Source: a virus
IMG/VR virus record: IMGVR_UViG_3300018080_000129
Span: 39,501-103,500 of that record
Length of the DNA: 64,000 bases
Strand: one strand, 5' to 3'
Shown one piece after another: positions 1,919 to 58,422 of the stretch (positions are counted from its first letter, which is position 1; every line of letters starts with the position of its first letter). The notes below the pieces were generated by a model. The model was given only the letters and a program-made list of their open reading frames with translations, searched no databases and had not been told where the DNA came from. A program made the position numbers and the translations under genes.

Positions 1919-3919
1919 CTACTTCCGAAAGACGTGAATCGGCTCGTGTTTGAAAGACTTTGAGTAAGGAGATGAAAGTTTCATAAGATGAGTACAAAAA
2001 AGCTGTAAACCTATACCTTTAATGTATTTAAGGAGGTCATCAGAGATTGGATAATGCTTTTTGTCTATTCTGATGTTTGCCACGTTGAGAACCAGATAAG
2101 CACCCTTCCTGAGCAGGTCAAAAGATTTTCTTACCAGCACGAAAAAGAACTTCTCCAACCATTCTTCGTAAGTCTCATATCGCACATCACTGAGCTTCTC
2201 ATCCGTGCCATAAATCTCTTTGCAAAAATACGGAGGAGAAGTAAATACGAGGTCAAATTCCTGCTCCTTTTTCCAGTCTTCAAAGGAGGCATAGACTATC
2301 TTTGCATCTTTCCCTTCGATGTCCCTGCTTAGGATATTCCTCATGTGCTTCAGACCAGCAACAGTATCCGCGTTGGCATCTATACCTACATACGATTTGG
2401 CTTTCTCTGATACAAAGAAGCCAAGCAATCTTCCTCCATAACCACTGCAAGGGTCAAGCACACTGCCGCCATCCGTACAATAAGTATCATAGACTGCCTT
2501 CGCAATTGCAGGACGAAAGGTATGAACTCCCCCACAAATTTGGAGTTCCGCTCTCAAGGCAGCATCCGAAACCGATTGTCTATATTTGATGCAATCTTTG
2601 ATGATGTGTTTCAATCTATTACGATTTCGAAAGACCTGATATGGACTCTGCCCACCCTTCCTCCTTGCCTTCCAAAACTCCGAAAAGTTCGAAACACAGT
2701 AACTGCTTCCCTGCGTATGACCGACTGGCACTTCATCCTCCAGTTTCAGAACTGAACTCTTCAAGGCTCCTATTTCCTTCAATCGTTTCTTTTTCTTGTA
2801 GACAGGATATGGAAAACCCGCTATCTGCCAGTAATCCACAAGGTCATCAATCTGTTTCTCCTTTTCTTCTTCACTCAAAAGAACATGCCTGCTAACGCTA
2901 AAATCCTTCAACACTGTAGCCAATGCCGGTCGAGAAAAGTGAGGAAGCCCAAAACGCAAGCTCAATGGAATTTTGTATGACATGGAAGGATGAACATGTT
3001 TTCCGATAACGGAAAAAAATCTGTCTTTGTTGTGAATCCAGAGAATCGTTATGTTATCTTCTGGTCTTGGACGACATTCAATATCCAGAGAGAAACGCTC
3101 GTTTAGCACATCGGCAATGGCTTCATAATCAGTAAAACATGTAGCCAACGTGAAAACTCCATCCAATGTTGCGTCAGCAAGATGTCCATCGTCCATATAC
3201 CAGACAGCCAAAGAAAGAGGAGTAAGTGTTTCTATCAAGCCTTCCGGTAGTTTCTTTTTGCCATCAGAGTAAAAGGAATGATAGAGTGCTACAAAGACAG
3301 GATGAAAATGGCAACGCAGAGACACACCCTTGGCTACTCGACCATCCTTCAAAATCTTTCCTTCTCTGCCAATCTTTCTTGAGAAAGGATGAAGAACCGA
3401 CTGTTTCCAGCAAAGATACTCTCTTTGCTCCGTAGAATGCGATTCTGAATATCGAGCGGAATCACCTGCCTTGTTCAAAGAAATGCACCCATCTCCCAAA
3501 AGAGAACCCATCAAAACTTCTTTCTGCGCCTGCGTCAGTTCAGAAGGCAGTGATGACCGTTGTCTTGAAGCTTTGCTTATTGGAGCAATTCCAAAATCCT
3601 GTCTCATTCGCCTAATCAGTATTTTACTGCATCCGAACAACTTCGCAAGTTTTCTTTCTCCATCCTTTCGATAAAGCTCCCCAAATTCCTCTGCTGACAC
3701 TTCTCTGATGTCTCTTAAACCCTTCAGCTTTGCTCGTCCTGCAACTCTATCCACAGACTTCATCGTCTGGATACCATACTTCTTCCTGAAATAAGCTACG
3801 CCCTCGCCAGTCAAGCCAAATCTCTTGCCAATCTCGCTGTCACTGAGGAAAAGCTCCAGATAGAGATGCCGAATGGTCTCTTCGTCCAGTCCATGTTCCT
3901 TGTGCGTCAACCTGCCCAT
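1919..3919 (-). CDS. HTH + LAGLIDADG endonuclease fused to an amino-DNA methyltransferase
   Basis: N-terminal HTH-like repeats, LMGSLLGDG and LAVWYMDDG LAGLIDADG motifs, then motif I VLDPCSGYGG and motif IV FTSPPY. Confidence 0.8.
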   Translation of the reverse strand: MGRLTHKEHGLDEETIRHLYLELFLSDSEIGKRFGLTGEGVAYFRKKYGIQTMKSVDRVAGRAKLKGLRDIREVSAEEFGELYRKDGERKLAKLFGCSKILIRRMRQDFGIAPISKASRQRSSLPSELTQAQKEVLMGSLLGDGCISLNKAGDSARYSESHSTEQREYLCWKQSVLHPFSRKIGREGKILKDGRVAKGVSLRCHFHPVFVALYHSFYSDGKKKLPEGLIETLTPLSLAVWYMDDGHLADATLDGVFTLATCFTDYEAIADVLNERFSLDIECRPRPEDNITILWIHNKDRFFSVIGKHVHPSMSYKIPLSLRFGLPHFSRPALATVLKDFSVSRHVLLSEEEKEKQIDDLVDYWQIAGFPYPVYKKKKRLKEIGALKSSVLKLEDEVPVGHTQGSSYCVSNFSEFWKARRKGGQSPYQVFRNRNRLKHIIKDCIKYRQSVSDAALRAELQICGGVHTFRPAIAKAVYDTYCTDGGSVLDPCSGYGGRLLGFFVSEKAKSYVGIDANADTVAGLKHMRNILSRDIEGKDAKIVYASFEDWKKEQEFDLVFTSPPYFCKEIYGTDEKLSDVRYETYEEWLEKFFFVLVRKSFDLLRKGAYLVLNVANIRIDKKHYPISDDLLKYIKGIGLQLFCTHLMKLSSPYSKSFKHEPIHVFRK

Positions 3920-4132: not shown

Positions 4133-4987
4133 TTATACGCGAGTAATTACAAGTCTCTGAAGAGCGTATGGGTTGTACGCCCCAATCCCAAGATTCTCAA
4201 AGATTGAGAACCCGATGAGACGGTTTTTCGGGTCATCCGCAGACAGAACCGTAAGCTCGGTTCTGACAGGAATGCGTCCGAAGAATTCCGGCTCACCGCA
4301 GACGTACACGGTTCCCTCAGTGACGATACGCGAAACAATGAGCTTCGCGCCCCACAGAGTTGCCATCAAGCCAGTTTTCAGCAAGCTGGCCTGCGTCTCG
4401 ATGTCCAAGGTATCTCTGTCCCACTTACGCAGGTCAGCATAGTCCTTGGCATTCATAAAGACGTTGGCGACTCTCATGTCAGTGCGCTCGACGTTCGCGA
4501 AAGCGTCGGCCAGCGCATTGGCCGTGAGGTTGCCCGTTACCGGAATGTCGGGATTCGGGTTAGTGGGGTCAGCCGCCAGTGCATCCATGACGGCAAAAAC
4601 CTTGCGGTCTTCTTCAGCCTGAATTTCGCTCTTAGCAAGGTCAACGCTTCTCTCGATGAGGTCGAACCGACGAGCCTTGATTTCCGTCAACTGGATTTCA
4701 GGGTTCGAGGCAACTTCAAAGAGCGGGAACAGAACTCTCTTTGGCTTTGCGACTGCGACAATGTTTTCACCCTCTTCACCGACCACATAGGCCGTGATGT
4801 TCGGGTCTTTGTCGTAAATCGGCAGTGCGCCATCGGGAAGCTGTTCGACGTAGAACGCTTTGCGTCCTACGGAAGTGTAGTCCCTGCGCCGACGCAAAGG
4901 CTGAATCATGGAGGCCGCAAGACGCTGCCTACCAGCGGCAGTCTTGATGAACTGACTGATAATCTCCTGCTTCGTCTGATTATCCAT
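4133..4987 (-). CDS. major capsid protein (probable HK97 fold)
   Basis: 284 aa, strong RBS, last gene of the scaffold-decoration-capsid block and followed by a terminator. C-terminal segments (VFMNAKDYADLR, LWGAKLIVSRIVTEGTVY) resemble HK97-type capsids. Confidence 0.8.
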   Translation of the reverse strand: MDNQTKQEIISQFIKTAAGRQRLAASMIQPLRRRRDYTSVGRKAFYVEQLPDGALPIYDKDPNITAYVVGEEGENIVAVAKPKRVLFPLFEVASNPEIQLTEIKARRFDLIERSVDLAKSEIQAEEDRKVFAVMDALAADPTNPNPDIPVTGNLTANALADAFANVERTDMRVANVFMNAKDYADLRKWDRDTLDIETQASLLKTGLMATLWGAKLIVSRIVTEGTVYVCGEPEFFGRIPVRTELTVLSADDPKNRLIGFSIFENLGIGAYNPYALQRLVITRV

Positions 4988-5058
4988 TACTCTTTACCTC
5001 CTTTTTCCAGTTTGCATCTTCTTTCTTCTGTTTCACTGCATTCTTACACACACCTGAC

Positions 5059-5553
5059 TTAGATGCGCATATCCAATCCGAGGGTCGGCGACGTAACGGT
5101 CGGAGCCTTCGTGCAGATACCGATAACGACTTGGCTGGTGCTCACTTCGTTCGTCAGGAAGCCCTGAGCGGACGAGTAGAGTTTCTCACCGACTGCATAG
5201 GTGAGGTCGCCGCTATCATCGTTTTTACGGGTTTCGTACACATCGACTTCAACAGACGCATGCGCCTTCATCACAGTCACCTTGCCAGAAACCACGGCGG
5301 GAGCATTTTCAAAAGCGGCTCCAGCGGCATCATTAACAAAGAGACCGACCGGCATGAGAGTCATGTTACACGGCACGACGGTGTAGTCGTTTCCAGCCGA
5401 CACAGCCGCCACAGAGCCGCCCAACACGCCTCTCGGAGTGTTGACACTCAACGTCGTATTCGTATTGACGCCATAGTTTGCTTTGGTGTAGCAGACATCG
5501 GCCAATACCGGAATCGCGTTGAGATGTCCACGAATAAGAATCGTTAGAGCCAT
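5059..5553 (-). CDS. head decoration/cement protein (probable)
   Basis: Small Gly/Ala/Val-rich beta protein immediately upstream of the capsid gene, with motif YAVGEKLYSSAQGFLT. Confidence 0.6.
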   Translation of the reverse strand: MALTILIRGHLNAIPVLADVCYTKANYGVNTNTTLSVNTPRGVLGGSVAAVSAGNDYTVVPCNMTLMPVGLFVNDAAGAAFENAPAVVSGKVTVMKAHASVEVDVYETRKNDDSGDLTYAVGEKLYSSAQGFLTNEVSTSQVVIGICTKAPTVTSPTLGLDMRI

Positions 5554-8615: not shown

Positions 8616-10904
8616 CTAATAATGTCCGTAAAAGTCTGCGGCTACCCGTTTCGCCATTGCCTGCCTGCGAAGCCGTTTCATTTCCTTCAACGTCACGCGC
8701 AACGCAAGCATTCCACTTTTATCCGCTACTCTCATGTGCTCCAGATTCTCGAATATTTCCTCAATCGTCCTATTTGGAATTGCAAGAATGCTGGCAGCCT
8801 TTTTCTCGTCCTCAAGCTGGCTCACAAAATGATTCAGCACCGCTCCCTTGAAAGCTGGTTTGGCTACCCAGGAAGCTTCAATGAATCTGAGAGACTCAGG
8901 GTCGCCTACCAGTTTGCCAGTCGAATCCTTATACGTCCTGCCGCAAAGCTCCGCAACAATGCGCTTCTTGCCGTCCTTGTCCGTGTAATAAGAAAGAAGC
9001 TCCGTCTTCAAATGGATACAGGTATCATCGTTGTCGGTAAACTCTTTGCCACACTTCGAGCACGTCACAATATGGGCAAGGCAGTTTTCGGCTCCAATAC
9101 CGCCACCAACTGTCAGACTGTGTTCTTCTTCTACTTCAAGACAATACACATACATCTTCTCGTTTACATCACTTATAGGTCGAACCTGTTCCACCTTTTT
9201 GATTCGACACATTACAAAATCATCCGATAATTGTTTGTGGAAACGTTTGTGTATTTTCCTTGGGTCGCCATCTGCCCAACGAGTCGTATATGGCGTTACT
9301 TTGCAAACAACCGAAGAAGGCACCGTGATATAATGTGCGGCTCTGTGCGCAACAATTATATCGCCCTGTTTTGTTTCGTGTGCTTCGTTGACCTTCCAAG
9401 AATGATACACACCTATCCGAGTAAGCATTAAACTCAATTGGCTGGCAAGTTTTGGACTTACAGTGGCACCAACAAGCCGTCCACGATTCTTCTTATCCAA
9501 ACAACCATCGCCATCAAACCAAGCACCTACAAGCGCACGAATAGCTGGAAGAGGCCACGAAACTACATCTTCAGTAACTTCTTTACCCCAAGAATAATGA
9601 CCACCATGATTCTTAAACCAATTCACAACATCTTCATTCCAGGCCGTTCGAATTTGACATTGTTTTGATTTTTTCCGCACATACAAAGAAGCGTTGACGT
9701 TAAATTCCTCCTTCAACAATTTTTGCGTTTCTCTTGCAAGCGTTTCTCTTTCGTCAATACTATAAGAAAATTCAACACAACGATATTTTCCCTTCTGTTT
9801 TACAAGATTTCCTTCGGCAAGATATAATCCCAAAAGCCTTGCTTTACCTGTCGAAATACTCTCCGAAGAAATCTCGTACTTACAAGGCATTGTAAGAAAA
9901 TCGCCTTTTTCAAGTTTACATGCTTCTTTCCAACTGAATTTTGGTTTTAATGCTTCTTTTAATGCTGCTTGACGTTGTTGCTTTTTCTCTGGACTATATG
10001 TAATCATAGGATTAAGAATACGAAGTTGATGTCCAGAAAGAAATGCCGCTTGAATAGTTCTACGAGATTTTTCTGCATTGTCCTCTAAGGGCAAGCCACA
10101 ACCACAACTACATTCATCTCGTCTTGTCAACGCCCAAAACTTATGATTTCCAGTACAAATAATTGGGTCAGGCCTTCCATCTATCCAAATCTTATAAATA
10201 TCACCGAACCAATGCGTTTTAATAGGACGTGTTACTTCACGAGCAAAACCACGATGCGTAATGACCTTCTCGCCCTTTTCAACCGTCTCAATAGACTTTT
10301 GAGTTCCATCAGACATTGTAACTAATGTGCCTCTTTGAAAACAACCCATCGAAAGCGTGTCCATCTCGCTGGACTCTATCCTTCTTATGAGGTCAGAATG
10401 CCTGCGATTCGTAGCGACAAGAATGTCTACATACTTGACATTCGCCTTCTTGCCATTCTTACCGACATAGATAACAGGCCGGACAACGGCATCCAGAATT
10501 TTTCCCTTGGAAAGTTCTGGAACCTGAATATGTTCTTCATAGTTTTCCGCACCAATGAAAGAGCGAAAAGTGGCAAGAAGAACAGGCTCCGTCCAGCCAT
10601 TGCCATTGTTATTGATAAGCTCATCACAGGGAGGAATAATGCGATAGCCGTCATCTTCGACGTTGACCGAACTGATAATCGAACAATGAGTGAAAAGATA
10701 ATCGCTAAGATTATACTTGCTCCAGTCAACTTCTATCTTCCTATCGCTGGCAATGCGCATATTGCCTCTGGTGAGCGCAAGCCAGTCTCTTTCAGGATGC
10801 CGAAGAACCTGAACCACGGGCGCATTGATGTCAAAGGCCCGCGATTTCTGACTGGCAATCAGAAGACATTGGTTGGAAGTGCAGCGTCTTTGCATGTTAT
10901 TCAT
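8616..10904 (-). CDS. probable prohead maturation protease containing an intein
   Basis: Extein has N-x-N-G-N-G-W, EH, GKILDAV, TLSMG|C...TCSKCG...CIHL and FIEASWVAKPAF motifs. Located between portal and scaffold genes. Confidence 0.65.
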   Translation of the reverse strand: MNNMQRRCTSNQCLLIASQKSRAFDINAPVVQVLRHPERDWLALTRGNMRIASDRKIEVDWSKYNLSDYLFTHCSIISSVNVEDDGYRIIPPCDELINNNGNGWTEPVLLATFRSFIGAENYEEHIQVPELSKGKILDAVVRPVIYVGKNGKKANVKYVDILVATNRRHSDLIRRIESSEMDTLSMGCFQRGTLVTMSDGTQKSIETVEKGEKVITHRGFAREVTRPIKTHWFGDIYKIWIDGRPDPIICTGNHKFWALTRRDECSCGCGLPLEDNAEKSRRTIQAAFLSGHQLRILNPMITYSPEKKQQRQAALKEALKPKFSWKEACKLEKGDFLTMPCKYEISSESISTGKARLLGLYLAEGNLVKQKGKYRCVEFSYSIDERETLARETQKLLKEEFNVNASLYVRKKSKQCQIRTAWNEDVVNWFKNHGGHYSWGKEVTEDVVSWPLPAIRALVGAWFDGDGCLDKKNRGRLVGATVSPKLASQLSLMLTRIGVYHSWKVNEAHETKQGDIIVAHRAAHYITVPSSVVCKVTPYTTRWADGDPRKIHKRFHKQLSDDFVMCRIKKVEQVRPISDVNEKMYVYCLEVEEEHSLTVGGGIGAENCLAHIVTCSKCGKEFTDNDDTCIHLKTELLSYYTDKDGKKRIVAELCGRTYKDSTGKLVGDPESLRFIEASWVAKPAFKGAVLNHFVSQLEDEKKAASILAIPNRTIEEIFENLEHMRVADKSGMLALRVTLKEMKRLRRQAMAKRVAADFYGHY
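9084..10343 (-). mobile_element. intein with LAGLIDADG homing endonuclease (420 aa)
   Basis: Starts CFQRGTLVTMSDG, block B CTGNHKF, LGLYLAEG and AWFDGDG motifs, ends VYCLEVEEEHSLTVGGGIGAEN followed by Cys+1. AT-richer than its flanks. Confidence 0.85.
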
Positions 10905-18879: not shown

Positions 18880-21800
18880 TTATCTGCTAATCCTAACTCT
18901 GCTTCTTGCCAAATGTTTGATTTTATCGGGAATCTTTCTCTTCTCGATTTCTCCATGTTTTCTCATCCTGTCCATTCGGAAAGTGCTCATGGTCGCGTTT
19001 TTAGCCGTCGCACCCATGCCACCATACGTCGAGCCATCCCTGCTGATTCCCAAGCTGACGTACTCAGGCCTTTCTCTTGTGGTGTTGTAGACTTCATAGA
19101 CGGCTCTGACAAAAGCATCCGATATATCGTCATGTGCTCCCCGCTTGTTGGGAGCGCGAACGAGAATTTTGTTTCGACTTTTTTTCTCTGCTTCCAGAGA
19201 GAGCAATTCTGGAACCAGAACAGGATGGTCAAATAGTTCAACCAGACCATCCATGTAAAGCATTTTGACAATCTGGTACATGTCATTGTTCAGCTTGTCC
19301 GTCACGCTCTCCATGCGGAATTGCTTCAAATTCATATTGTGAAGAATCTCAAGCAAACTGTAGCCGTTCCACTGGTCGAACCAACCGCTCTTGCAGGGCC
19401 ACCATTTGCAAAGCTCTTGAATCTCTTTGGCAACTTCCTCGACGCTCAGAATGTCCCTGTTGGACATCCTGCCACAATCTTTGTAGAGAGTTCTTTCGCT
19501 GTCCCAAACATCCGAAGAGGCCGAGTAAAAAACCTCCGCATAGTCTAAAATGACTTTCTTGCTTTTCCTGTCTCGATGAACGATGGTGATTGCCGTGCCG
19601 TCATTCTTCAATCCCATGTCAATGCCCATGAAATATTCTGTACCCGGCACTCCTCTGGTGGGAGGGTTCTTGATAGTGATGCACTTCCTGAAAGCATCCT
19701 CGTCCTCAATCCAAGCAACAATGTTATCGCTGAATTCGCCGCCATACTCGCACATGAACTGATGATTATTTCGCCTTCTCTCGGTCTTCAACAATACGGA
19801 ATCGACCTCTGGATTCATCAGAGCCGAGTAAAATTTCATCATCAGTGTGACATCTGTCTCTTCATAGCTTTGAACGTATCTATCCCAAAACGCGCCATAT
19901 TTCGCGTAAGGAGAAGAAATGCAGATAACCTTGCCGTCCTGCCTGAAAGTAGCCGTAGAAGGCGTCAAAGCCTTGTAAATCTCCTGCCCCGAAAACCGCC
20001 CCGCGTTGCTAATGAAGAACGCCATCTCGTCCATGATAACACAAATGGCGTTATGACCACGTAAACCATTGGAAGCGCAGCCTCCAGCAATGGCAACAAG
20101 GCTGGCTGGCTTCTTAGCTTTAGTTGATTTCAGGTCGGCATCTGTTTGCAGATTGAAATACTGCTGCGTAGCGTTTTTGATACGCCCTCTAAAAAAGCTG
20201 CAAGATGTAGCTGCATTTTGAGCCATACCAAAAAGAATCTGCGCCTGCTCATCCGTAGGAGCGACATTCATCACGGCAATTTTGCTTTCAGGCTGGAAAC
20301 CATAGTATTTTGAAGGGTCTCCACGCTTGAGCAGCTTATAAAGCTCATAATCACTAATCCATGAGCAAAGCGAACTATTATGAGACAACAAATCTCCACC
20401 AATAATATGCGTTCCTTTCACGTTCAAATCAATAGTTGGCAGTTCACCCACGTCTTCTATCTTTTTAACCTTGTCCCAATATACATCGGAAGTTCCAAAT
20501 GAGTAAACAAACTTGTCTCCTAAATTCTGTCCGTACATCGCCACTTTTCTTCTACTCGGTGAATATCCAAGTCTCAACTTTTCCTGCTGATAATGTCCAT
20601 GAAAACCATGCACATCGGCATTCGTTAAGCCTTTTCTTTTTTGAACTTTCTTGATATATTTCCATATTCCTCTTGGCACTGAAAAAAACTCATTCTTAGA
20701 TAACACACGCTTGGAAACAACAGAAAGAACCTTCTGCAAAGCCTTCTCTTTCGTGTAAATACCAATCTCTCGCGCAAAGGTGATTATTGAATCAGAAGAT
20801 TGAATCTCCAAAAAATAACTGTCGAAACTCTTACCATTGCACTTGGTCTTTTTCGGTCTGAGTATAGAATGAATTCCAAATTTCAAAAGCAAATGCCTGA
20901 CATCATCTATGAGCCGGTATGAAGATGAACAATAACCTACACTGACTTTTGAAAGAGAATGACTCTTCCGAGCAACTTTTTCCACGGTAGCCCATCCATC
21001 ACAAGCAAATAAACGCGAAAGAAATGCAGAAATCTCTCCACGACTACCTCTCAAAATACATTTAGGAACTCTTTTCTCCACAGCTTTATGACCATGACAA
21101 TCATGCCTTTTAAGCCATTTTACAAAAAGGTTATCTCTGCTGCCGTCCTGAGCTTTCTTACCTGAATCTTTCACTACCTGATAATGATTGCAGTAGTTTT
21201 TTCTATTGTAAATCTTCAGATGATATTTCGGGAAATTAACAGTAATGAGCTTACCAAATTCCGCAGCCTGTCTCTTACTCGCGCTAACAAATGTTGCCGA
21301 TTCAGTAGTAGCTCCATCTCCCTGTAAATATCCAAGTAATTTTGCTTTGTCGATACCAACATTGCCTTCTCCGAACAAGGAGTTTTCCTTTGCAACCGCT
21401 ATTTTATCGCCAATTTTGACATCAGACAGCTTAACAAATTGAGGTTCTTCCCAATCATCACGCCAAACAAGATAAGGATGATTCAGAGAAGATATTTCCG
21501 CAATGCCTCTCTTTGTTTGAATGCGTCGGCAGGCTCTAATTCCATTGTGCCATATTGAGAAGTCATAGGTAATATTTCGTTTCAGATAACGAGGGTCATA
21601 GGTAATTATTCCAACTCTCTCATTCTTTTGTTTCCTACACAGAAGTTCTCCAAACTCCATAGAACCTTTAGTTGTGGCAACAATATCTTTCTCGTATCGG
21701 CACTTCCCACCGCGCCTGCCCGCTACGAGAATAAGCTGTCTGAAGTTCTTTCCCGACAATTCCGTTGTATTGATTCTGCCTTCATTCCAAAGCCAGTCCA

Positions 21801-22053
21801 AAAACTCGGTTTCAGTGAAACGATAGAGAACCTTGTCATTGACAACATTGGGTACGACAATCGTTTTGTTTTTGTCATCTAACTCCAGACCATAGAATGC
21901 CTTCACAACGAATCCCTGGACTGGACGAGGAGTGACATTCAACCCCCAAGGAGAAGTAATAAAAGTCATCGCATCGACAACATCTTCCGTATTGCCGGAG
22001 AGAAACGACTCGGCAAGCTGTTTCAAGGAATCGTCTTTTTTGGCCGTTACCAT
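18880..22053 (-). CDS. terL: terminase large subunit containing an intein
   Basis: Walker A AGRRGGK|S split by the intein, Walker B VIMDEMA, CISSP motif, nuclease YFMGIDMG...HDDISDA. Confidence 0.92.
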   Translation of the reverse strand: MVTAKKDDSLKQLAESFLSGNTEDVVDAMTFITSPWGLNVTPRPVQGFVVKAFYGLELDDKNKTIVVPNVVNDKVLYRFTETEFLDWLWNEGRINTTELSGKNFRQLILVAGRRGGKCRYEKDIVATTKGSMEFGELLCRKQKNERVGIITYDPRYLKRNITYDFSIWHNGIRACRRIQTKRGIAEISSLNHPYLVWRDDWEEPQFVKLSDVKIGDKIAVAKENSLFGEGNVGIDKAKLLGYLQGDGATTESATFVSASKRQAAEFGKLITVNFPKYHLKIYNRKNYCNHYQVVKDSGKKAQDGSRDNLFVKWLKRHDCHGHKAVEKRVPKCILRGSRGEISAFLSRLFACDGWATVEKVARKSHSLSKVSVGYCSSSYRLIDDVRHLLLKFGIHSILRPKKTKCNGKSFDSYFLEIQSSDSIITFAREIGIYTKEKALQKVLSVVSKRVLSKNEFFSVPRGIWKYIKKVQKRKGLTNADVHGFHGHYQQEKLRLGYSPSRRKVAMYGQNLGDKFVYSFGTSDVYWDKVKKIEDVGELPTIDLNVKGTHIIGGDLLSHNSSLCSWISDYELYKLLKRGDPSKYYGFQPESKIAVMNVAPTDEQAQILFGMAQNAATSCSFFRGRIKNATQQYFNLQTDADLKSTKAKKPASLVAIAGGCASNGLRGHNAICVIMDEMAFFISNAGRFSGQEIYKALTPSTATFRQDGKVICISSPYAKYGAFWDRYVQSYEETDVTLMMKFYSALMNPEVDSVLLKTERRRNNHQFMCEYGGEFSDNIVAWIEDEDAFRKCITIKNPPTRGVPGTEYFMGIDMGLKNDGTAITIVHRDRKSKKVILDYAEVFYSASSDVWDSERTLYKDCGRMSNRDILSVEEVAKEIQELCKWWPCKSGWFDQWNGYSLLEILHNMNLKQFRMESVTDKLNNDMYQIVKMLYMDGLVELFDHPVLVPELLSLEAEKKSRNKILVRAPNKRGAHDDISDAFVRAVYEVYNTTRERPEYVSLGISRDGSTYGGMGATAKNATMSTFRMDRMRKHGEIEKRKIPDKIKHLARSRVRISR
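20377..21702 (-). mobile_element. intein with LAGLIDADG homing endonuclease (442 aa)
   Basis: Starts CRYEKD, block B SLNHPY, LGYLQGDG and LFACDG motifs, ends DLNVKGTHIIGGDLLSHN followed by Ser+1. Confidence 0.9.
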
Positions 22054-35885: not shown

Positions 35886-37685
35886 TTAGAACTTCTGGCG
35901 AATCTGCTCGATGGTGGGAATCTCTTCCTCAGCCATCACGCCTTCGGTCTGCAACAGCATTTGGATGATTTTCTCGCTGAAACCTCCAACGAGATTGACC
36001 TTCTCCTTCTTTTCATCTACAATACTGTCACCATAACCATGCAGATTGACAGAGTGCAGCCACGTATTGGCAGACTGCTTGCTTCTTTTGTAACGCTGCC
36101 ATGCGTCTGCCACATTGCTGCTGCTGCCACCATACCCATAACCATAACCGTCCGTCCAGCACTGCATATCGCTGAGCAGAATAATTCGGTCAGGATGCGC
36201 ATTCTTCCTAATCAAATACTCAAAGCAAAGATGTCCATTCGTGCTGCATCCATTCGTATTGGCATTCGCCAGCTTCTTTACCATCTCCATCACGCTCGTG
36301 CGCTTCGTGTAGGAAACAGGCGCAACAGCCGTGGCGAATGCGGCCACAATGGACTTCTCCGAACGCTTCGCACAAATTGCCGCCAGTGTGTTCGCAGCGT
36401 TCTTGCAGGACATCTTGCTTCTGTCTGACACAGCAGACTCCATCGAGCCACTGTTATCCGCGAAGACTGCGGTCTCGCCAGTCAGAAAAGGCACGTTCTC
36501 GCAAGCCGCCTCAGCCGCATCCTCGATGGCTTCCAGCACAGTCTTCAGCTTGGAGTCATCAATCGTTTCCCGCTCATCCTCATAGCCGTAACCGTAGCCA
36601 TGCTGAGAGCCAAAACCCTGAAGCATCTCGTAAGCCATCGTGAAACGGAAAGGCAATTGCTTGCTCCGCAGCACTTCTTCCTTGTCCGACAACTTCTTCG
36701 CCACAGCGTCGATGACTTTGGAACTTACATCTGTTTTCATCAAGTTCCGCAGATTCCGCAAAAGGGCCATATACCCGACCAGATTCTTCTCAATCAGGTA
36801 TTCCCATACTTCGCGCTTGGTTTTGTCATCGCGGCCAAACTGAGAAAGCACAACTTCCCAATTCGCCAATGACTTCGCAACAAGCTCCTTGGCCTTTTTG
36901 TCGAATTTCTCCTGCTTCGTCATTTCCCTACGAGCGAAAGCGACAGGAGTTCCCTCTTCGTCCACTTCGCCTTTGATGAAATACTTGCAAACCGCATCAG
37001 GAAGAGGATAATCCTTCTTTCTCTTCCTCACAAGCCGGAGTACATCCTTGAAAGTAGGATAGCCAGGGCTATCATACTTCATCAGGCCGCGCTCATTGAA
37101 CTTGTGAAGAGCGTCTCCAATTCCACGGCTCAAGCAGTTCTTGAGGCTCTTGCTGCCAAAGAAATACTTGTGCAGGGCCACGACCGTCTTGACCTCATCA
37201 GGACGCCGGATAATTTTCGTAGCATACTGGCGCACATACTCCTGACAATTCTCATGGGCCGAAGCCAGCACGAGAAGAACTTGAGGAGTGAGACGAATGT
37301 TCATCTCATTGCGCAGCCAGTTCGCGATTGCCAGCGCGTCACGGGGATTCTCCGTACCCATGATGTCTACCGCCGTAGCGATAACTTCCTGAGCCACGTC
37401 GTCCAAATCACCAGCATCGACAAACTTGGCCTTTTCCCTGACAATGCGCAGCCTCTCAGCCAACTTGGAGTATTTTCCAGCCGCCCCCCTCTTCGCCACA
37501 ACGGAATCACCATTGTAGTATCGAGGTTCGGAAAAAAAGGAGCCTCCCGTCATGGTAATCAGCTTCGTAGCAGGGCACTGAATCTCAAAAGCCACACCGC
37601 CTGCCCTGTTGACTGTGGCATTCGCAGCCTTCGAAGCTTTGTTCTTACCAACTCTCGACTTTAGTTTCTTCTTCATTGTTCCCAT
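35886..37685 (-). CDS. TROVE-domain RNA-binding protein (Ro60/Rsr-like) with vWA domain
   Basis: VNRAGGVAF, LRNEMNIR, IIRRPDE, GYMALLRNLRN, SKQLPFRF, MIDAS DNSGSM, IILLSDMQ, VNLHGYG, GFSEK. Confidence 0.9.
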   Translation of the reverse strand: MGTMKKKLKSRVGKNKASKAANATVNRAGGVAFEIQCPATKLITMTGGSFFSEPRYYNGDSVVAKRGAAGKYSKLAERLRIVREKAKFVDAGDLDDVAQEVIATAVDIMGTENPRDALAIANWLRNEMNIRLTPQVLLVLASAHENCQEYVRQYATKIIRRPDEVKTVVALHKYFFGSKSLKNCLSRGIGDALHKFNERGLMKYDSPGYPTFKDVLRLVRKRKKDYPLPDAVCKYFIKGEVDEEGTPVAFARREMTKQEKFDKKAKELVAKSLANWEVVLSQFGRDDKTKREVWEYLIEKNLVGYMALLRNLRNLMKTDVSSKVIDAVAKKLSDKEEVLRSKQLPFRFTMAYEMLQGFGSQHGYGYGYEDERETIDDSKLKTVLEAIEDAAEAACENVPFLTGETAVFADNSGSMESAVSDRSKMSCKNAANTLAAICAKRSEKSIVAAFATAVAPVSYTKRTSVMEMVKKLANANTNGCSTNGHLCFEYLIRKNAHPDRIILLSDMQCWTDGYGYGYGGSSSNVADAWQRYKRSKQSANTWLHSVNLHGYGDSIVDEKKEKVNLVGGFSEKIIQMLLQTEGVMAEEEIPTIEQIRQKF

Positions 37686-52201: not shown

Positions 52202-52439
52202 TTCGATACCTAAGGTCGAATAGAGGATTACGCTACACAGCGTAGTGCCGTCTCTCCAGCAATGTCACCGTTCTTTCACGGTCTGTCGTCGGATACTTTG
52301 ACCCGCAGTCAGCGAAACTTTCCTCGCAGCCATCATGGGTTTTAGCCCATGAGCAAAGCCCGTCTTTCCGAGCATGTCAGGAGTTCCACTCCTTTTCACA
52401 TAATCAATGTGAAGTATCTCTACTCTGGAGCGTATCGAA
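52202..52439 (-). ncRNA. Y-RNA-like motif, copy enclosing nine hairpins
   Basis: TTCGATAC-GCTCCA-GAGTAGAG-ATACTTC...CTCTATTC-GACCTTAG-GTATCGAA. Confidence 0.7.
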
Positions 52440-55308: not shown

Positions 55309-56184
55309 TTAAAAAATTAGAGCACCACTCTTCTGCCAGTCATAGCGCAAGTGATTATCAGGGCAGAAAATCAACTGCCGAATCTCTCCATCCTTGCTCG
55401 GATAGGTCAGGCAATTGTTCAGGCAGACATTCTGGTCGTTCAAGTCATAGACGACGGCTCCATGCGGCAATCGAAGCAACTCCGTCCCTTTCTTGCACAG
55501 AAACTCCTCCAGTCCGGCTTCCGCAGAACAAACCTTATGCTTGTCCACCCATTGTTTGACATGCTGACCTTTCCATGTTTCTTCCGGCTCCCCAAGTTCG
55601 CGCACTGTCAACTGGTCAACCTTCAAATCCCTACAAACCTCAACAAGCTTCTTCAGGCGGTCAACATTGTCCACATGGCCCTTGCAAATGACACAGGAAA
55701 CGCGAACCATGAAACTATGCTGCTTGAGAATTCTGCATGATTCGTTCCAGTTGAATTTCGGTTTGTTGTCCGTCATCAAACGAGCATTGTTCTCAGGCTC
55801 GATGTCTCCTATCGAGAGACACACAGAAGTCAGACCAAAATATTTCCAAGTCTCCAGATAACGATTCTGGAAATCATCATCCTCGAAAACAATGCCATTG
55901 GTCTGCAACTCGATAAGAGGAAACTCATGCTGGCGCAAGACAGAAAGAAATGTCGTAATCTGCTGTGGAAAAAGAGTAGGCTCACCTTTGCCGGTGAAAA
56001 GGGCGGTTGTGATACCATGTGCTCTTGAATACCTACAAGCCGCTTCGAATGCTCTCCAATCGACAACTGGAAGCTCTTTCTCCATGCCAAAGCTTGGCGT
56101 CATCTTCGAGACGCAATAAGGGCATCTGGCGTTACAAGCGCGTGAACCTGTCACAATGGAAAGAGTTGTCGCCTCAATTTTCAT
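55309..56184 (-). CDS. radical SAM protein
   Basis: CNARCPYC, TGKGEP, ELQTNG. Confidence 0.88.
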   Translation of the reverse strand: MKIEATTLSIVTGSRACNARCPYCVSKMTPSFGMEKELPVVDWRAFEAACRYSRAHGITTALFTGKGEPTLFPQQITTFLSVLRQHEFPLIELQTNGIVFEDDDFQNRYLETWKYFGLTSVCLSIGDIEPENNARLMTDNKPKFNWNESCRILKQHSFMVRVSCVICKGHVDNVDRLKKLVEVCRDLKVDQLTVRELGEPEETWKGQHVKQWVDKHKVCSAEAGLEEFLCKKGTELLRLPHGAVVYDLNDQNVCLNNCLTYPSKDGEIRQLIFCPDNHLRYDWQKSGALIF

Positions 56185-57159: not shown

Positions 57160-57515
57160 TGGTGGAGGCGGCGAGGAGTCGCACCTCGCGTCCAGTGGTG
57201 CTCTCGATAGGGCGTCTACACGCTTATCCAGTTGATTCTATATCTCGGCTCATCTGGCAAGCCTCAGGCGGCTGTTTACCCGCCACGTCAGGCCGTCTTT
57301 CCAGCCTGCCAACCTGTCTTTCCAAGCTGCCAGCCCTTGTGTCGTACCCTATTCCCGCTTACTAAGGACGAATCTCAACGGTTTTGGGGCTGCCTAAGCA
57401 GCGATTCTGTAGGAGTTGCCAAGTAAATGGCATAGTCGGCTTTTTACGAGGCCAACCGACCAACCTCGACGTGCAGCCATTCTCGATACGCATCCTGTCG
57501 ATACTACGCGCCCCC
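57160..57515 (-). ncRNA. ssrA: tmRNA
   Basis: 5' GGGGGCG...TCGAC; 3' GCGAGG-TGCGACT-CCTCGC-CGCCTCCACCA with G3:U70; internal tag frame GNSYRIAA* at 57394..57420; 356 nt. Confidence 0.92.
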
Positions 57516-57522
57516 AATTGTC

Positions 57523-57551
57523 GTTTCAATCCACGCCCTCACACGGGCGAC
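57523..57551 (-). CRISPR. solitary type I-C-like CRISPR repeat
   Basis: GTCGCCCGTGTGAGGGCGTGGATTGAAAC (29 nt), ending 7 nt before the tmRNA. Confidence 0.65.
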
Positions 57552-57585
57552 TAACGTTTACTCTCACGCGCCTTAAAAAGGAAAA

Positions 57586-57815
57586 GAAAAGTAAGGAAGA
57601 TAGTGGTGTTTCATCATCGACGCATCCGTTGGAGGATTTTCAACCTCTTTTGCTCCATTGCTTTTTTTACTAAATCAATGCCGTCTTTCCGGCTGTCAGC
57701 GAGACTAAATATCTCGCTTACCAATAATTTTTTTAGAGCAATGGAGCTTATTTCACGGATAAGCAAAAGCCCTTCGCTAACTGCTCGAAGCGTCTCCCAC
57801 CTACCCTACACTCTC
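57586..57815 (-). ncRNA. structured RNA resembling the 23S rRNA L1 stalk (H76-H78)
   Basis: GTGTAGGGTAGGTGGGAGAC...GTCGATGATGAAACACCAC flanking nested stems. Confidence 0.6.
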
Positions 57816-57881
57816 CCAACCCACGCTTGCAATCATGGGCTGTCCTTTTCTTACCCCTCTATACGGATTTCTCGACAAATT

Positions 57882-58202
57882 TCAACATCTTTTTTTGATT
57901 TTTTCGAAATCGAACGCTTCAATTTTAGCCTTCAGCCTATGACAGAGCTTCGGGTTCATCTTCCCTTGAAATGCCAGAAGAACCGTTGTCCAAAAGTAAG
58001 TACATTCGTCAAGGGCAAATCCCGAAACATGACAGGTCGCATGAGCCGCCACTTTGTTCCTTTTGCAGAATTGGGAAAGAACTCCCTCCACATGCTTTTC
58101 AATAGCAGCCGTCACCACATGCCTGCAATACGGGCCATTGAGAATACCCGCTATGGTCTCATAAGTTCTGCAAGCTTCGCAGTTTTCGTATTCATTGTTC
58201 AT
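57882..58202 (-). CDS. hypothetical Cys-rich protein
   Basis: ORF coupled to the upstream gene. Confidence 0.55.
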   Translation of the reverse strand: MNNEYENCEACRTYETIAGILNGPYCRHVVTAAIEKHVEGVLSQFCKRNKVAAHATCHVSGFALDECTYFWTTVLLAFQGKMNPKLCHRLKAKIEAFDFEKIKKRC

Positions 58203-58422
58203 TCAACTTGTGCTCCAAGTAAAAAGGACAGTAGTCAGGCGGCTCATTCCGCACCTTCCGCATCTTCTCTCTGATGCTCAACGTTCCATCCCACGGAGGA
58301 CACAGCACAAAACCAAAATTGATTCGACCATGCTTGCCGCTCCACCATCTTTCTTTGTAGCTGTCCCACTGCGCTCGATTCGATTGAGCGAAACAACGAA
58401 CACAAAATTCCTTCGTCAGCAT
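58192..58422 (-). CDS. small Cys-rich protein (paralog of 58416..58673)
   Basis: L.KE.C..C...V.CP...P..CPFYLE. Confidence 0.65.
   Translation of the reverse strand: MLTKEFCVRCFAQSNRAQWDSYKERWWSGKHGRINFGFVLCPPWDGTLSIREKMRKVRNEPPDYCPFYLEHKLNEQ

Follow-up and report, generated by a model that had tools for sequence, protein, structure and literature searches.

The phage locus

The stretch analysed here, which we call the window, comprises 64,000 nt and covers positions 39501-103500 of IMG/VR record IMGVR_UViG_3300018080_000129. The phage record is 103.5 kb long and about 31% complete as estimated with CheckV, and is therefore a fragment of a very large phage. Its minus strand carries an element that resembles the L1 stalk of 23S rRNA, flanked by a small ORF on one side and by the phage tmRNA on the other (Table 1). 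The element lies upstream of the tmRNA, as a first-pass annotation had stated, and is on the same strand at a spacing of 76 nt. A solitary CRISPR-like repeat sits between the two RNAs, 7 nt ahead of the tmRNA 5' end, and two further CRISPR-like repeats were seen in that first reading to precede other noncoding RNAs in the window.

Scans for promoters and terminators called neither at the element, and no credible promoter separates it from the tmRNA; the sole promoter-like site found spans the 5' end of the tmRNA. Element and tmRNA are probably carried on one transcript, and the U-rich tail that follows the closing helix of the element may mark an RNA 3' end. As regards a coding function of the region, which the first-pass annotation had named as a reason to abandon an RNA reading, neither of the two overlapping ORFs has a Pfam match above noise. 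The neighbouring 106-aa ORF has no relatives that could be found in IMG/VR.

A radical SAM protein is encoded near the element, and a protein 75% identical to it (P0002) is encoded on a contig of 4.5 kb. More than 1,000 homologues were found at about 45% identity, many of them in records labelled as MAGs of Nanoarchaeota, Woesearchaeota or Patescibacteria; these records may be phage contigs that were binned wrongly, or they may be a clue to host range. Among the large minus-strand ORFs of the window, two contain inteins that bear LAGLIDADG domains, a third is a fusion of LAGLIDADG with a DNA methylase, and the ORF at 35886-37685 encodes a Ro60/TROVE protein.

Table 1. Positions in the window of the L1-stalk-like element, its parts and neighbouring features
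Feature	Position	Strand	Basis or remarks
L1-stalk-like element	57595-57817	-	
Small flanking ORF	57882-58202	-	
Overlapping ORF	57603-58274	+	
Overlapping ORF	57614-57766	-	
Phage tmRNA	57160-57515	-	Rfam RF00023, 88.4 bits
Solitary type I-C-like CRISPR repeat GUCGCCCGUGUGAGGGCGUGGAUUGAAAC	57523-57551	-	Rfam CRISPR-DR9, 21.4 bits, E 0.036, below gathering score
Pyrimidine/U-rich tail UUACUUUUCUUUUCCUUUUU	57575-57594	-	similar tail 3' of H76 in other phage modules; not called by terminator scan
H76-like closing helix, 5' strand GGGAGA	57812-57817	-	pairs with UCUUCC; 6/8 aligned H76 positions paired
H76-like closing helix, 3' strand UCUUCC	57595-57600	-	folding and alignment
Loop A UGUAGGGUA (23S 2111-2119)	57802-57810	-	8/9 identical to universal UGUAGGAUA; one change, A2117G
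H77, 5' strand GGUGG	57797-57801	-	5/5 paired with CCACU, one G-U
H77, 3' strand CCACU	57602-57606	-	pairs with GGUGG
GA bulge (2125-2126)	57795-57796	-	A2126 invariant, G2125 nearly so, in 16 aligned L1 stalks
H78 base, 5' strand GACGC (P1)	57790-57794	-	five Watson-Crick pairs with GCGUC
H78 base, 3' strand GCGUC	57619-57623	-	pairs with GACGC
Distal loop B GAUGAUGAAACA (2162-2173)	57607-57618	-	12 nt; T-loop 2 UGAAA, platform A2169; U2172C
Branched 166-nt insert replacing distal H78	57624-57789	-	MFE and constrained folds
Predicted hairpin Pa	57786-57761	-	MFE/constrained folds
Predicted helix Pb AUCCGU/ACGGAU	within insert	-	MFE/constrained folds
Predicted 11-bp helix GCUCCAUUGCU/AGCAAUGGAGC	57747-57737 / 57662-57652	-	MFE/constrained folds
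Predicted hairpin	57718-57698	-	MFE/constrained folds
Predicted hairpin GCCGGAAAGACGGC, GAAAGA loop	57693-57680	-	MFE/constrained folds; GCCG-GAAAGA-CGGC
Predicted hairpin, UUGAAAAU loop	57647-57632	-	MFE/constrained folds
Second (proximal) loop-B copy AUCCGUGAAAUA	57749-57760	-	38 nt after GGGAG, the canonical spacing
GAAAGA hexaloop of tmRNA, AGGCUG-GAAAGA-CGGCCU	about 57288-57305	-	
GAAAGA hexaloop of Y-RNA-like cargo	about 52360-52370	-	
Radical SAM protein	55309-56184	-	
Large ORFs	1919-3919, 8616-10904, 18880-22053, 35886-37685	-	

Architecture of the element

Read 5' to 3', the element has the order (G)UGUAGGGUA-GGUGG-GA-GACGC-(166 nt)-GCGUC-GAUGAUGAAACA-CCACU and is closed by GGGAGA/UCUUCC. 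Every string quoted in the first-pass annotation was recovered on the minus strand, both the outer blocks (GUGUAGGGUAGGUGGGAG-ACGC at 57811-57790 and GCGU-CGAUGAUGAAACACCAC at 57623-57603) and the inner 11-bp stem with the hairpins AGCGAGA..UCUCGCU, GCCGGAAAGACGGC and GAGG..CCUC. The MFE fold of the region reaches -80.3 kcal/mol, with z = -4.0.

The H76-like closing helix is short, and a mismatch of G57811 opposite A57601 adjoins the junction. Loop A contains platform residue G2112 and T-loop 1, AGGG(U)A, with A2114, G2115, U2118 and A2119 kept. The distal loop B is identical to that of E. coli at eight of 12 positions, with differences at 2164-2166 and 2172, and its C2172 pairs with G2117. 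Both T-loop-forming segments are kept, AGGG(U)A and UGAAA, as had been supposed in the first reading. Of H78 only the base is retained, GACGC/GCGUC, with UUCGAG and GGAU beside it. The ribosomal form of this helix, about 35 nt of hairpin that include a UUUGAA/GGA internal loop, is absent, and the 166 nt found in place of the remainder agree with the large insert that had been noted. The GAC/GUC form of the H78 base also occurs in Actinomycetota and in several phage modules described below.

Match to the bacterial L1 stalk

The reference was E. coli rrlH read against the Rfam consensus structure, in which H76 spans 2093-2110/2179-2196, loop A 2111-2119 (UGUAGGAUA), H77 2120-24/2174-78 (GGUGG/CCACC), the bulge G2125 and A2126, H78 2127-2161 and loop B 2162-2173 (GACCUUGAAAUA). 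The gene reads GUGUAGGAUAGGUGGGAGGC...GCCGACCUUGAAAUACCAC, as given in the first-pass annotation, and the match of the 5' block to E. coli at 17 of 18 positions was confirmed. Its description of the conserved blocks as H76-78 holds in part: the blocks comprise loop A, H77, the GA bulge, the H78 base and loop B, and H76 proper is, by the Rfam consensus structure, a variable helix outside them. These blocks are almost invariant across bacteria, as judged from 13 L1 stalks of seven phyla drawn from rRNA-bearing plasmids.

A gap-free, two-block PSSM trained on 14 other L1 stalks, the element being excluded, gave the element 47.9 bits, against 8.9 bits for the next real match in the window. Maxima in 200 shuffled windows were 15.1 +/- 3.3 bits, the highest being 26.2, and the combined pattern had 0 expected matches in 100 shuffles. 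The likeness to the L1 stalk is far beyond chance.

Covariance models were less straightforward. The model R1, built from the 13 bacterial rRNA stalks, had no match in the window at E<=10, and the comparison with Rfam and the LSU model, proposed in the first-pass annotation, likewise returned no match for the element in the window at E<=10. We attribute these misses to the penalty for a gap of about 180 nt; the tests failed nonetheless. R1 scores drop with gap length, from about 76-81 bits at 38-39 nt to 31-38 bits at 58-100 nt. A second model, R2, was trained on phage and bacterial stalks without the element and with distal H78 left unstructured; it ranked the element first in the window (17.6 bits, E 0.007), but through an alignment with the proximal copy of loop B.

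Other searches placed the element outside known families. Rfam assigned it none at E<=10, in the window or in the region, and blastn against 50,697 phage records gave no match. A blastn search of the same records with a module of canonical size (L051, see below) returned contaminating 23S only. A 23S rRNA gene (RF02541) was excluded, with no LSU match in the region or in the whole 103.5-kb record. With no LSU rRNA in the record, the element does not belong to an rRNA gene, and with an ORF and a tmRNA as its flanks it is the free-standing copy of an rRNA fragment that the first reading had proposed.

The insert and a second copy of loop B

No homologue of the 166-nt insert was found and its fold is without covariation support, so the helices listed in Table 1 are a prediction only. 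A GAAAGA hexaloop hairpin closed by G-C in the insert has counterparts in the tmRNA and in a Y-RNA-like cargo RNA; the stems differ among the three RNAs, and the shared hexaloop may be a common protein-binding site.

The insert also contains a proximal copy of loop B that was absent from the first reading. It is the best loop-B PSSM match of the entire window (17.26/17.45 bits) and is followed by AGCU, CCAUU, G and CUCU, of which CCAUU could pair with GGUGG using two G-U pairs. Both R1 and R2 align the 5' half to this proximal copy and not to the distal 3' half. The distal half offers perfect helices and the compensating C2172, and its fold is favoured by about 22 kcal/mol in secondary-structure energy (-81.1 for the distal fold versus -58.6 for the proximal state). 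When the distal fold forms, most of the proximal copy is hidden inside helices Pb and Pc; folded by themselves, the first 100 nt favour yet another structure. The second copy leaves the true fold of the element ambiguous. It may be a remnant, may provide an additional T-loop or may represent the alternative state of a switch. An origin of the two copies by tandem duplication of the whole module was rejected, the halves scoring 14 versus a shuffle mean of 16.6.

Two alternative 3' halves could in principle make the element a sensor that mimics rRNA. The single L1 5' half would close with either loop-B/H77 3' half, and free uL1 or tRNA would set read-through into the tmRNA: uL1 or an uncharged tRNA-type elbow would bind the proximal head, which is of canonical size, as it emerges from the polymerase, and the distal closing helix and U-tract would be blocked. 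Such a device would be riboswitch-like and made from a ribosomal domain, and we regard it as a long shot.

Stand-alone L1-stalk modules in other phages

The first-pass annotation had suggested a search for homologues in phage genomes. When IMG/VR was scanned with degenerate patterns, either of the 5' block or of both blocks together, the matches comprised contaminating genuine 23S as well as isolated H76-H78 units in phage contigs (L049/L052/L054, L050, L051/L053, L055, L056, L062 and L065). With one more that was found with model R2 (G002/L088), the further stand-alone modules number eight. R1, which knows bacterial rRNA only, scores these modules at 30.8-80.8 bits and finds exactly one per record. 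The Rfam LSU model matches L050 and L051 above gathering, covering only model positions of about 2129-2212. Most modules have 38-39 nt between GGGAG and UGAAA; this spacing is 58 nt in L062, 100 nt in L055 and 180 nt in our element. Since L055 and L062 also carry inserts in H78, this helix is the tolerated insertion site.

One module came from a complete phage of 117 kb (G002), where it was found with R2. This phage is related to ours, as seen from a radical SAM protein of 40% identity, and the module lies upstream of the radical SAM gene on the same strand in both phages, by about 2.1 kb in G002 and 1.4 kb here. The G002 module has loop A UGUAGAGUA, loop B GUCAAUGAAACA, a U-rich tail and an H77 of GUCGG/CCGAU in which two pairs are doubly compensated. 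It is likely an orthologue of the element. Among five related phages that were searched, four have no module, and the module is dispensable on that account.

Other candidates were set aside. Two-block matches with gaps of 150-195 nt in IMG/VR, metagenomes and genomes consisted of one chance match in coding sequence and two assembly chimeras of real 23S; 5' blocks of the G2117 type, other than that of L062, were look-alikes in coding sequence. An exact scan of IMG/VR with GTAGGGTAGGTGGGAG returned only reverse complements of tRNA 3' ends.

Most of the modules keep company with tRNA genes. Five of them (L050, L056, L062, L051 and L055) lie in tRNA arrays and have tRNA-type neighbours on their own strand. 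L062, L050 and L056 are directly upstream of tRNAs, L062 with an 11/12 sigma-70 promoter 25 nt upstream of it and three tRNAs directly downstream. In L051, L055, L049 and L065 a tail is followed by a promoter or an ORF and not by a tRNA; in L051 the tail is U-rich and precedes a perfect promoter for the next gene.

This arrangement bears on the possibility that the element is a cis-acting leader of the tmRNA. Its head would dock the tRNA-like domain of the tmRNA downstream and so aid folding or RNase P processing, or the element would be a two-state attenuator: the one 5' half would pair with one or the other 3' half, and the choice would determine if the closing helix and U-tract form ahead of the tmRNA. 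The closeness of the tmRNA, the shared strand, the lack of a credible promoter in the interval, the combination of one 5' half with two loop-B copies (the proximal being the better match and at canonical spacing), the U-rich tail after the closing helix and the three modules directly upstream of tRNAs all speak for a leader. However, the proximal state is the less stable by about 22 kcal/mol and the first 100 nt prefer another fold, modules of canonical size show no alternative pairing, and the four modules that do not precede a tRNA indicate that the class can act away from tRNA genes. We consider a leader unlikely.

Several observations were made beside these modules. In the L049/L052/L054 phage the pyrimidine tail 3' of the module (CCUUUCCUC) and the Shine-Dalgarno sequence (GAAGGAGG) of an ORF starting about 25 nt further on are complementary to each other, a hint that the module controls translation in that phage. 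In the L055 module (4977-5097, minus strand) the 100-nt H78 insert contains GGAGGGAGAC...GUC...CUGAACC, which is like a degenerate nested H77/GA/H78 core. In phage G004, one of the spacers that separate the tRNAs of its array (L038, 1501-1586, plus strand) resembles H78 alone; it has an AUGAAG...UGGAG internal loop and no loops A and B, and its R1 score of 21 bits is marginal. Directly upstream of the tmRNAs of G004 and G003, huge phages related to this one, is a conserved stretch of about 300 nt (L040/L041, about 1000-1500; for example AUCGAGGGC..UUUGGAAGC..CCAUAAAUCGUAGCAAGUA) that has no Rfam match and may be another noncoding RNA.

To our knowledge the L1 stalk is known only as a part of the ribosome, and a literature search for phage or stand-alone L1-stalk RNAs found no paper. 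The stand-alone phage modules are apparently an undescribed set, of which the element is an insert-bearing, tmRNA-linked variant.

Covariation and the tertiary fold

Covariation was analysed in 16 aligned L1-stalk sequences. Pairing holds in 100% of cells for H77, where G002 has double changes, and in 97.8% for the H78 base; H76 has double changes at seven of its eight pairs. Position 2113:2170 is U:A in 14 sequences, the element among them, and C:G in the other two. Position 2117:2172 is A:U in 13 sequences and G:C in three (the element, L062 and G002), and one-sided changes never occur. The observed values were reached by none of 500 shuffles, and sliding the partner columns destroyed the signal.

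Since A2117G and U2172C recur together in L062 and G002 and never one-sidedly, the two departures of the element behave as a compensated pair, a feature not seen in the first reading. We take 2117:2172 to be a pair in the solved crystal structures of the stalk; a literature search for the A2117:U2172 pair found no confirming paper. The compensation points to selection on the three-dimensional fold, and L1-stalk copies are maintained by structural selection in several large-phage lineages.

The same data bear on whether the element is a functionless relic, that is, a decaying scrap of host 23S rDNA or a chance likeness. The lack of an insert homologue, the four relatives without a module and the silence of Rfam would suit a relic. 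Chance is nevertheless excluded by the shuffles and the PSSM. The element consists of the H76-H78 unit alone, with cleanly bounded helices; H76 and H77 differ between independent phage modules, with compensating changes; the two deviations from the universal core are compensatory and common to two other modules; and strand and position agree with the tRNA and tmRNA genes. A relic is highly improbable in our judgement.

Binding surfaces and possible function

In the ribosome, the L1 stalk and uL1 grip and eject E-site tRNA. The double T-loop core of such elbow-binding RNAs consists of six residues, AGNNA...UGNNA, and a 2112:2169 purine platform stacks on the G19:C56 elbow of tRNA; H78 does not interfere with the loop-loop fold (Lehmann et al. 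2013, PMC3664808). All six core residues are present in the element, AGGG(U)A ... UGAAA, as is a purine:purine platform made of G2112, penultimate before T-loop 1, and A2169, the centre of T-loop 2. Protein uL1 touches H77, the junction and basal H78 with its domain I and loop B with its domain II, and the distal part of H78 is not contacted (Hu et al., PMC5689012). The first-pass annotation would have given up its reading if homologues had lost the L1-stalk blocks; the parts contacted by uL1 persist in the element and in all phage modules, including those in which other sequence stands in place of distal H78.

T-box Stem I has no H78, and the GA bulge and basal H78 are therefore dispensable for elbow docking. 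The GA junction and basal H78 stay conserved in the modules, and consequently we read uL1 binding as retained. Searches of the phage record found no uL1 gene (Ribosomal_L1) and likewise no rpl gene; the partner would therefore be a host protein. The first reading had put forward three functions, a uL1 sponge, an elbow clamp and a decoy; conservation of both the uL1 surface and the elbow platform fits a sponge and a clamp alike and does not tell them apart.

A pure sponge would only bind free host uL1, with no docking of tRNA elbows, and would relieve the translational repression of the L11 operon by uL1 or give rise to uL1-poor ribosomes. In its favour, no part of the phage modules is conserved more strictly than the uL1 contact surface, and the record has no uL1 gene, so that the partner would be a host protein. 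However, the modules lie consistently beside tRNA or tmRNA genes, a setting suggestive of tRNA biology, and a sponge would need no more than a minimal operator of the mRNA type, whereas the entire double T-loop platform is kept, including G2112 and A2169. A pure sponge seems to us rather improbable.

The reading we favour, and hold with moderate confidence, is that the element is a stand-alone L1-stalk-head RNA, one of a set of large-phage modules, and would work as a free L1-stalk RNP that docks tRNA-type elbows. The element would be co-transcribed from the minus strand with the downstream tmRNA, and an RNase P cut at the tmRNA 5' end would release its RNA. Host uL1 would be recruited through H77, the GA junction, basal H78 and loop B, and the resulting RNP would dock elbows by stacking on the G2112:A2169 platform. 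The docked RNAs could be tRNA, the tRNA-like domain of tmRNA and the phage's YrlA-like RNAs, and the purpose could be to hold or chaperone such RNAs or to divert uL1 and deacylated tRNA from host ribosomes.

A separately encoded L1 stalk among phage tRNA and tmRNA genes would imply that a piece of the ribosome serves phages as a free RNA or RNP tool that either handles RNAs of tRNA shape or captures a ribosomal protein, and this would be a new form of viral intervention in translation. To the set of modules the element adds that H78 tolerates very large insertions, that a module can be tied to a tmRNA and that the tertiary pair 2117:2172 covaries from A:U to G:C, as evidence of selection for the three-dimensional fold. 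It is also a small, natural L1-stalk construct for binding and structural work.

Comparison with known systems

The closest counterpart is the bacterial 23S L1 stalk itself (H76-H78, E. coli 2093-2196; RF02541 about 2129-2212). Shared with it are loop A (8/9), the 5-bp H77, the GA bulge, basal H78, a 12-nt loop B with UGAAA, the residues G2112 and A2169 and the pairs 2113:2170 and 2117:2172. In contrast with the ribosomal stalk, the element lies outside rRNA, its H76 has only about 6 bp, and a branched domain of 166 nt stands in place of distal H78 (about 30 nt); it also has A2117G with U2172C, changes at 2164-2166 of loop B and a second loop-B copy in the insert.

With the other phage modules the element shares the isolated H76-H78 unit, one per record, tRNA-type neighbours on the same strand and the pyrimidine/U-rich tail, as well as inserts in H78 (L055 and L062) and the G2117:C2172 subtype (L062 and G002). 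It differs from them in having the largest insert seen (180 nt from GGGAG to UGAAA versus 38-100) and the shortest and least regular H76, and it alone is directly upstream of a tmRNA and has a second loop-B copy.

The double T-loop module of RNase P and T-boxes (PMC3664808) has the same AGNNA...UGNNA core and purine:purine platform, and the expected function is likewise stacking on the tRNA G19:C56 elbow. However, the strand topology of the element and its three-way junction with H78 are those of the ribosome, and the specifier loop, K-turn and antiterminator of T-boxes are absent. The Rfam search matched neither T-box (RF00230) nor RNase P, the T-box not even at E<=10.

Finally, the uL1 operator in the mRNA leader of the L11 operon, a mimic of the 23S site, is also a non-ribosomal RNA that presents a uL1 site of the H77/H78 type. 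Operators of this kind are minimal (a helix and an asymmetric loop, with a short J2-1) and precede rplK/rplA, whereas the element has both loops A and B in full and stands ahead of a tmRNA.
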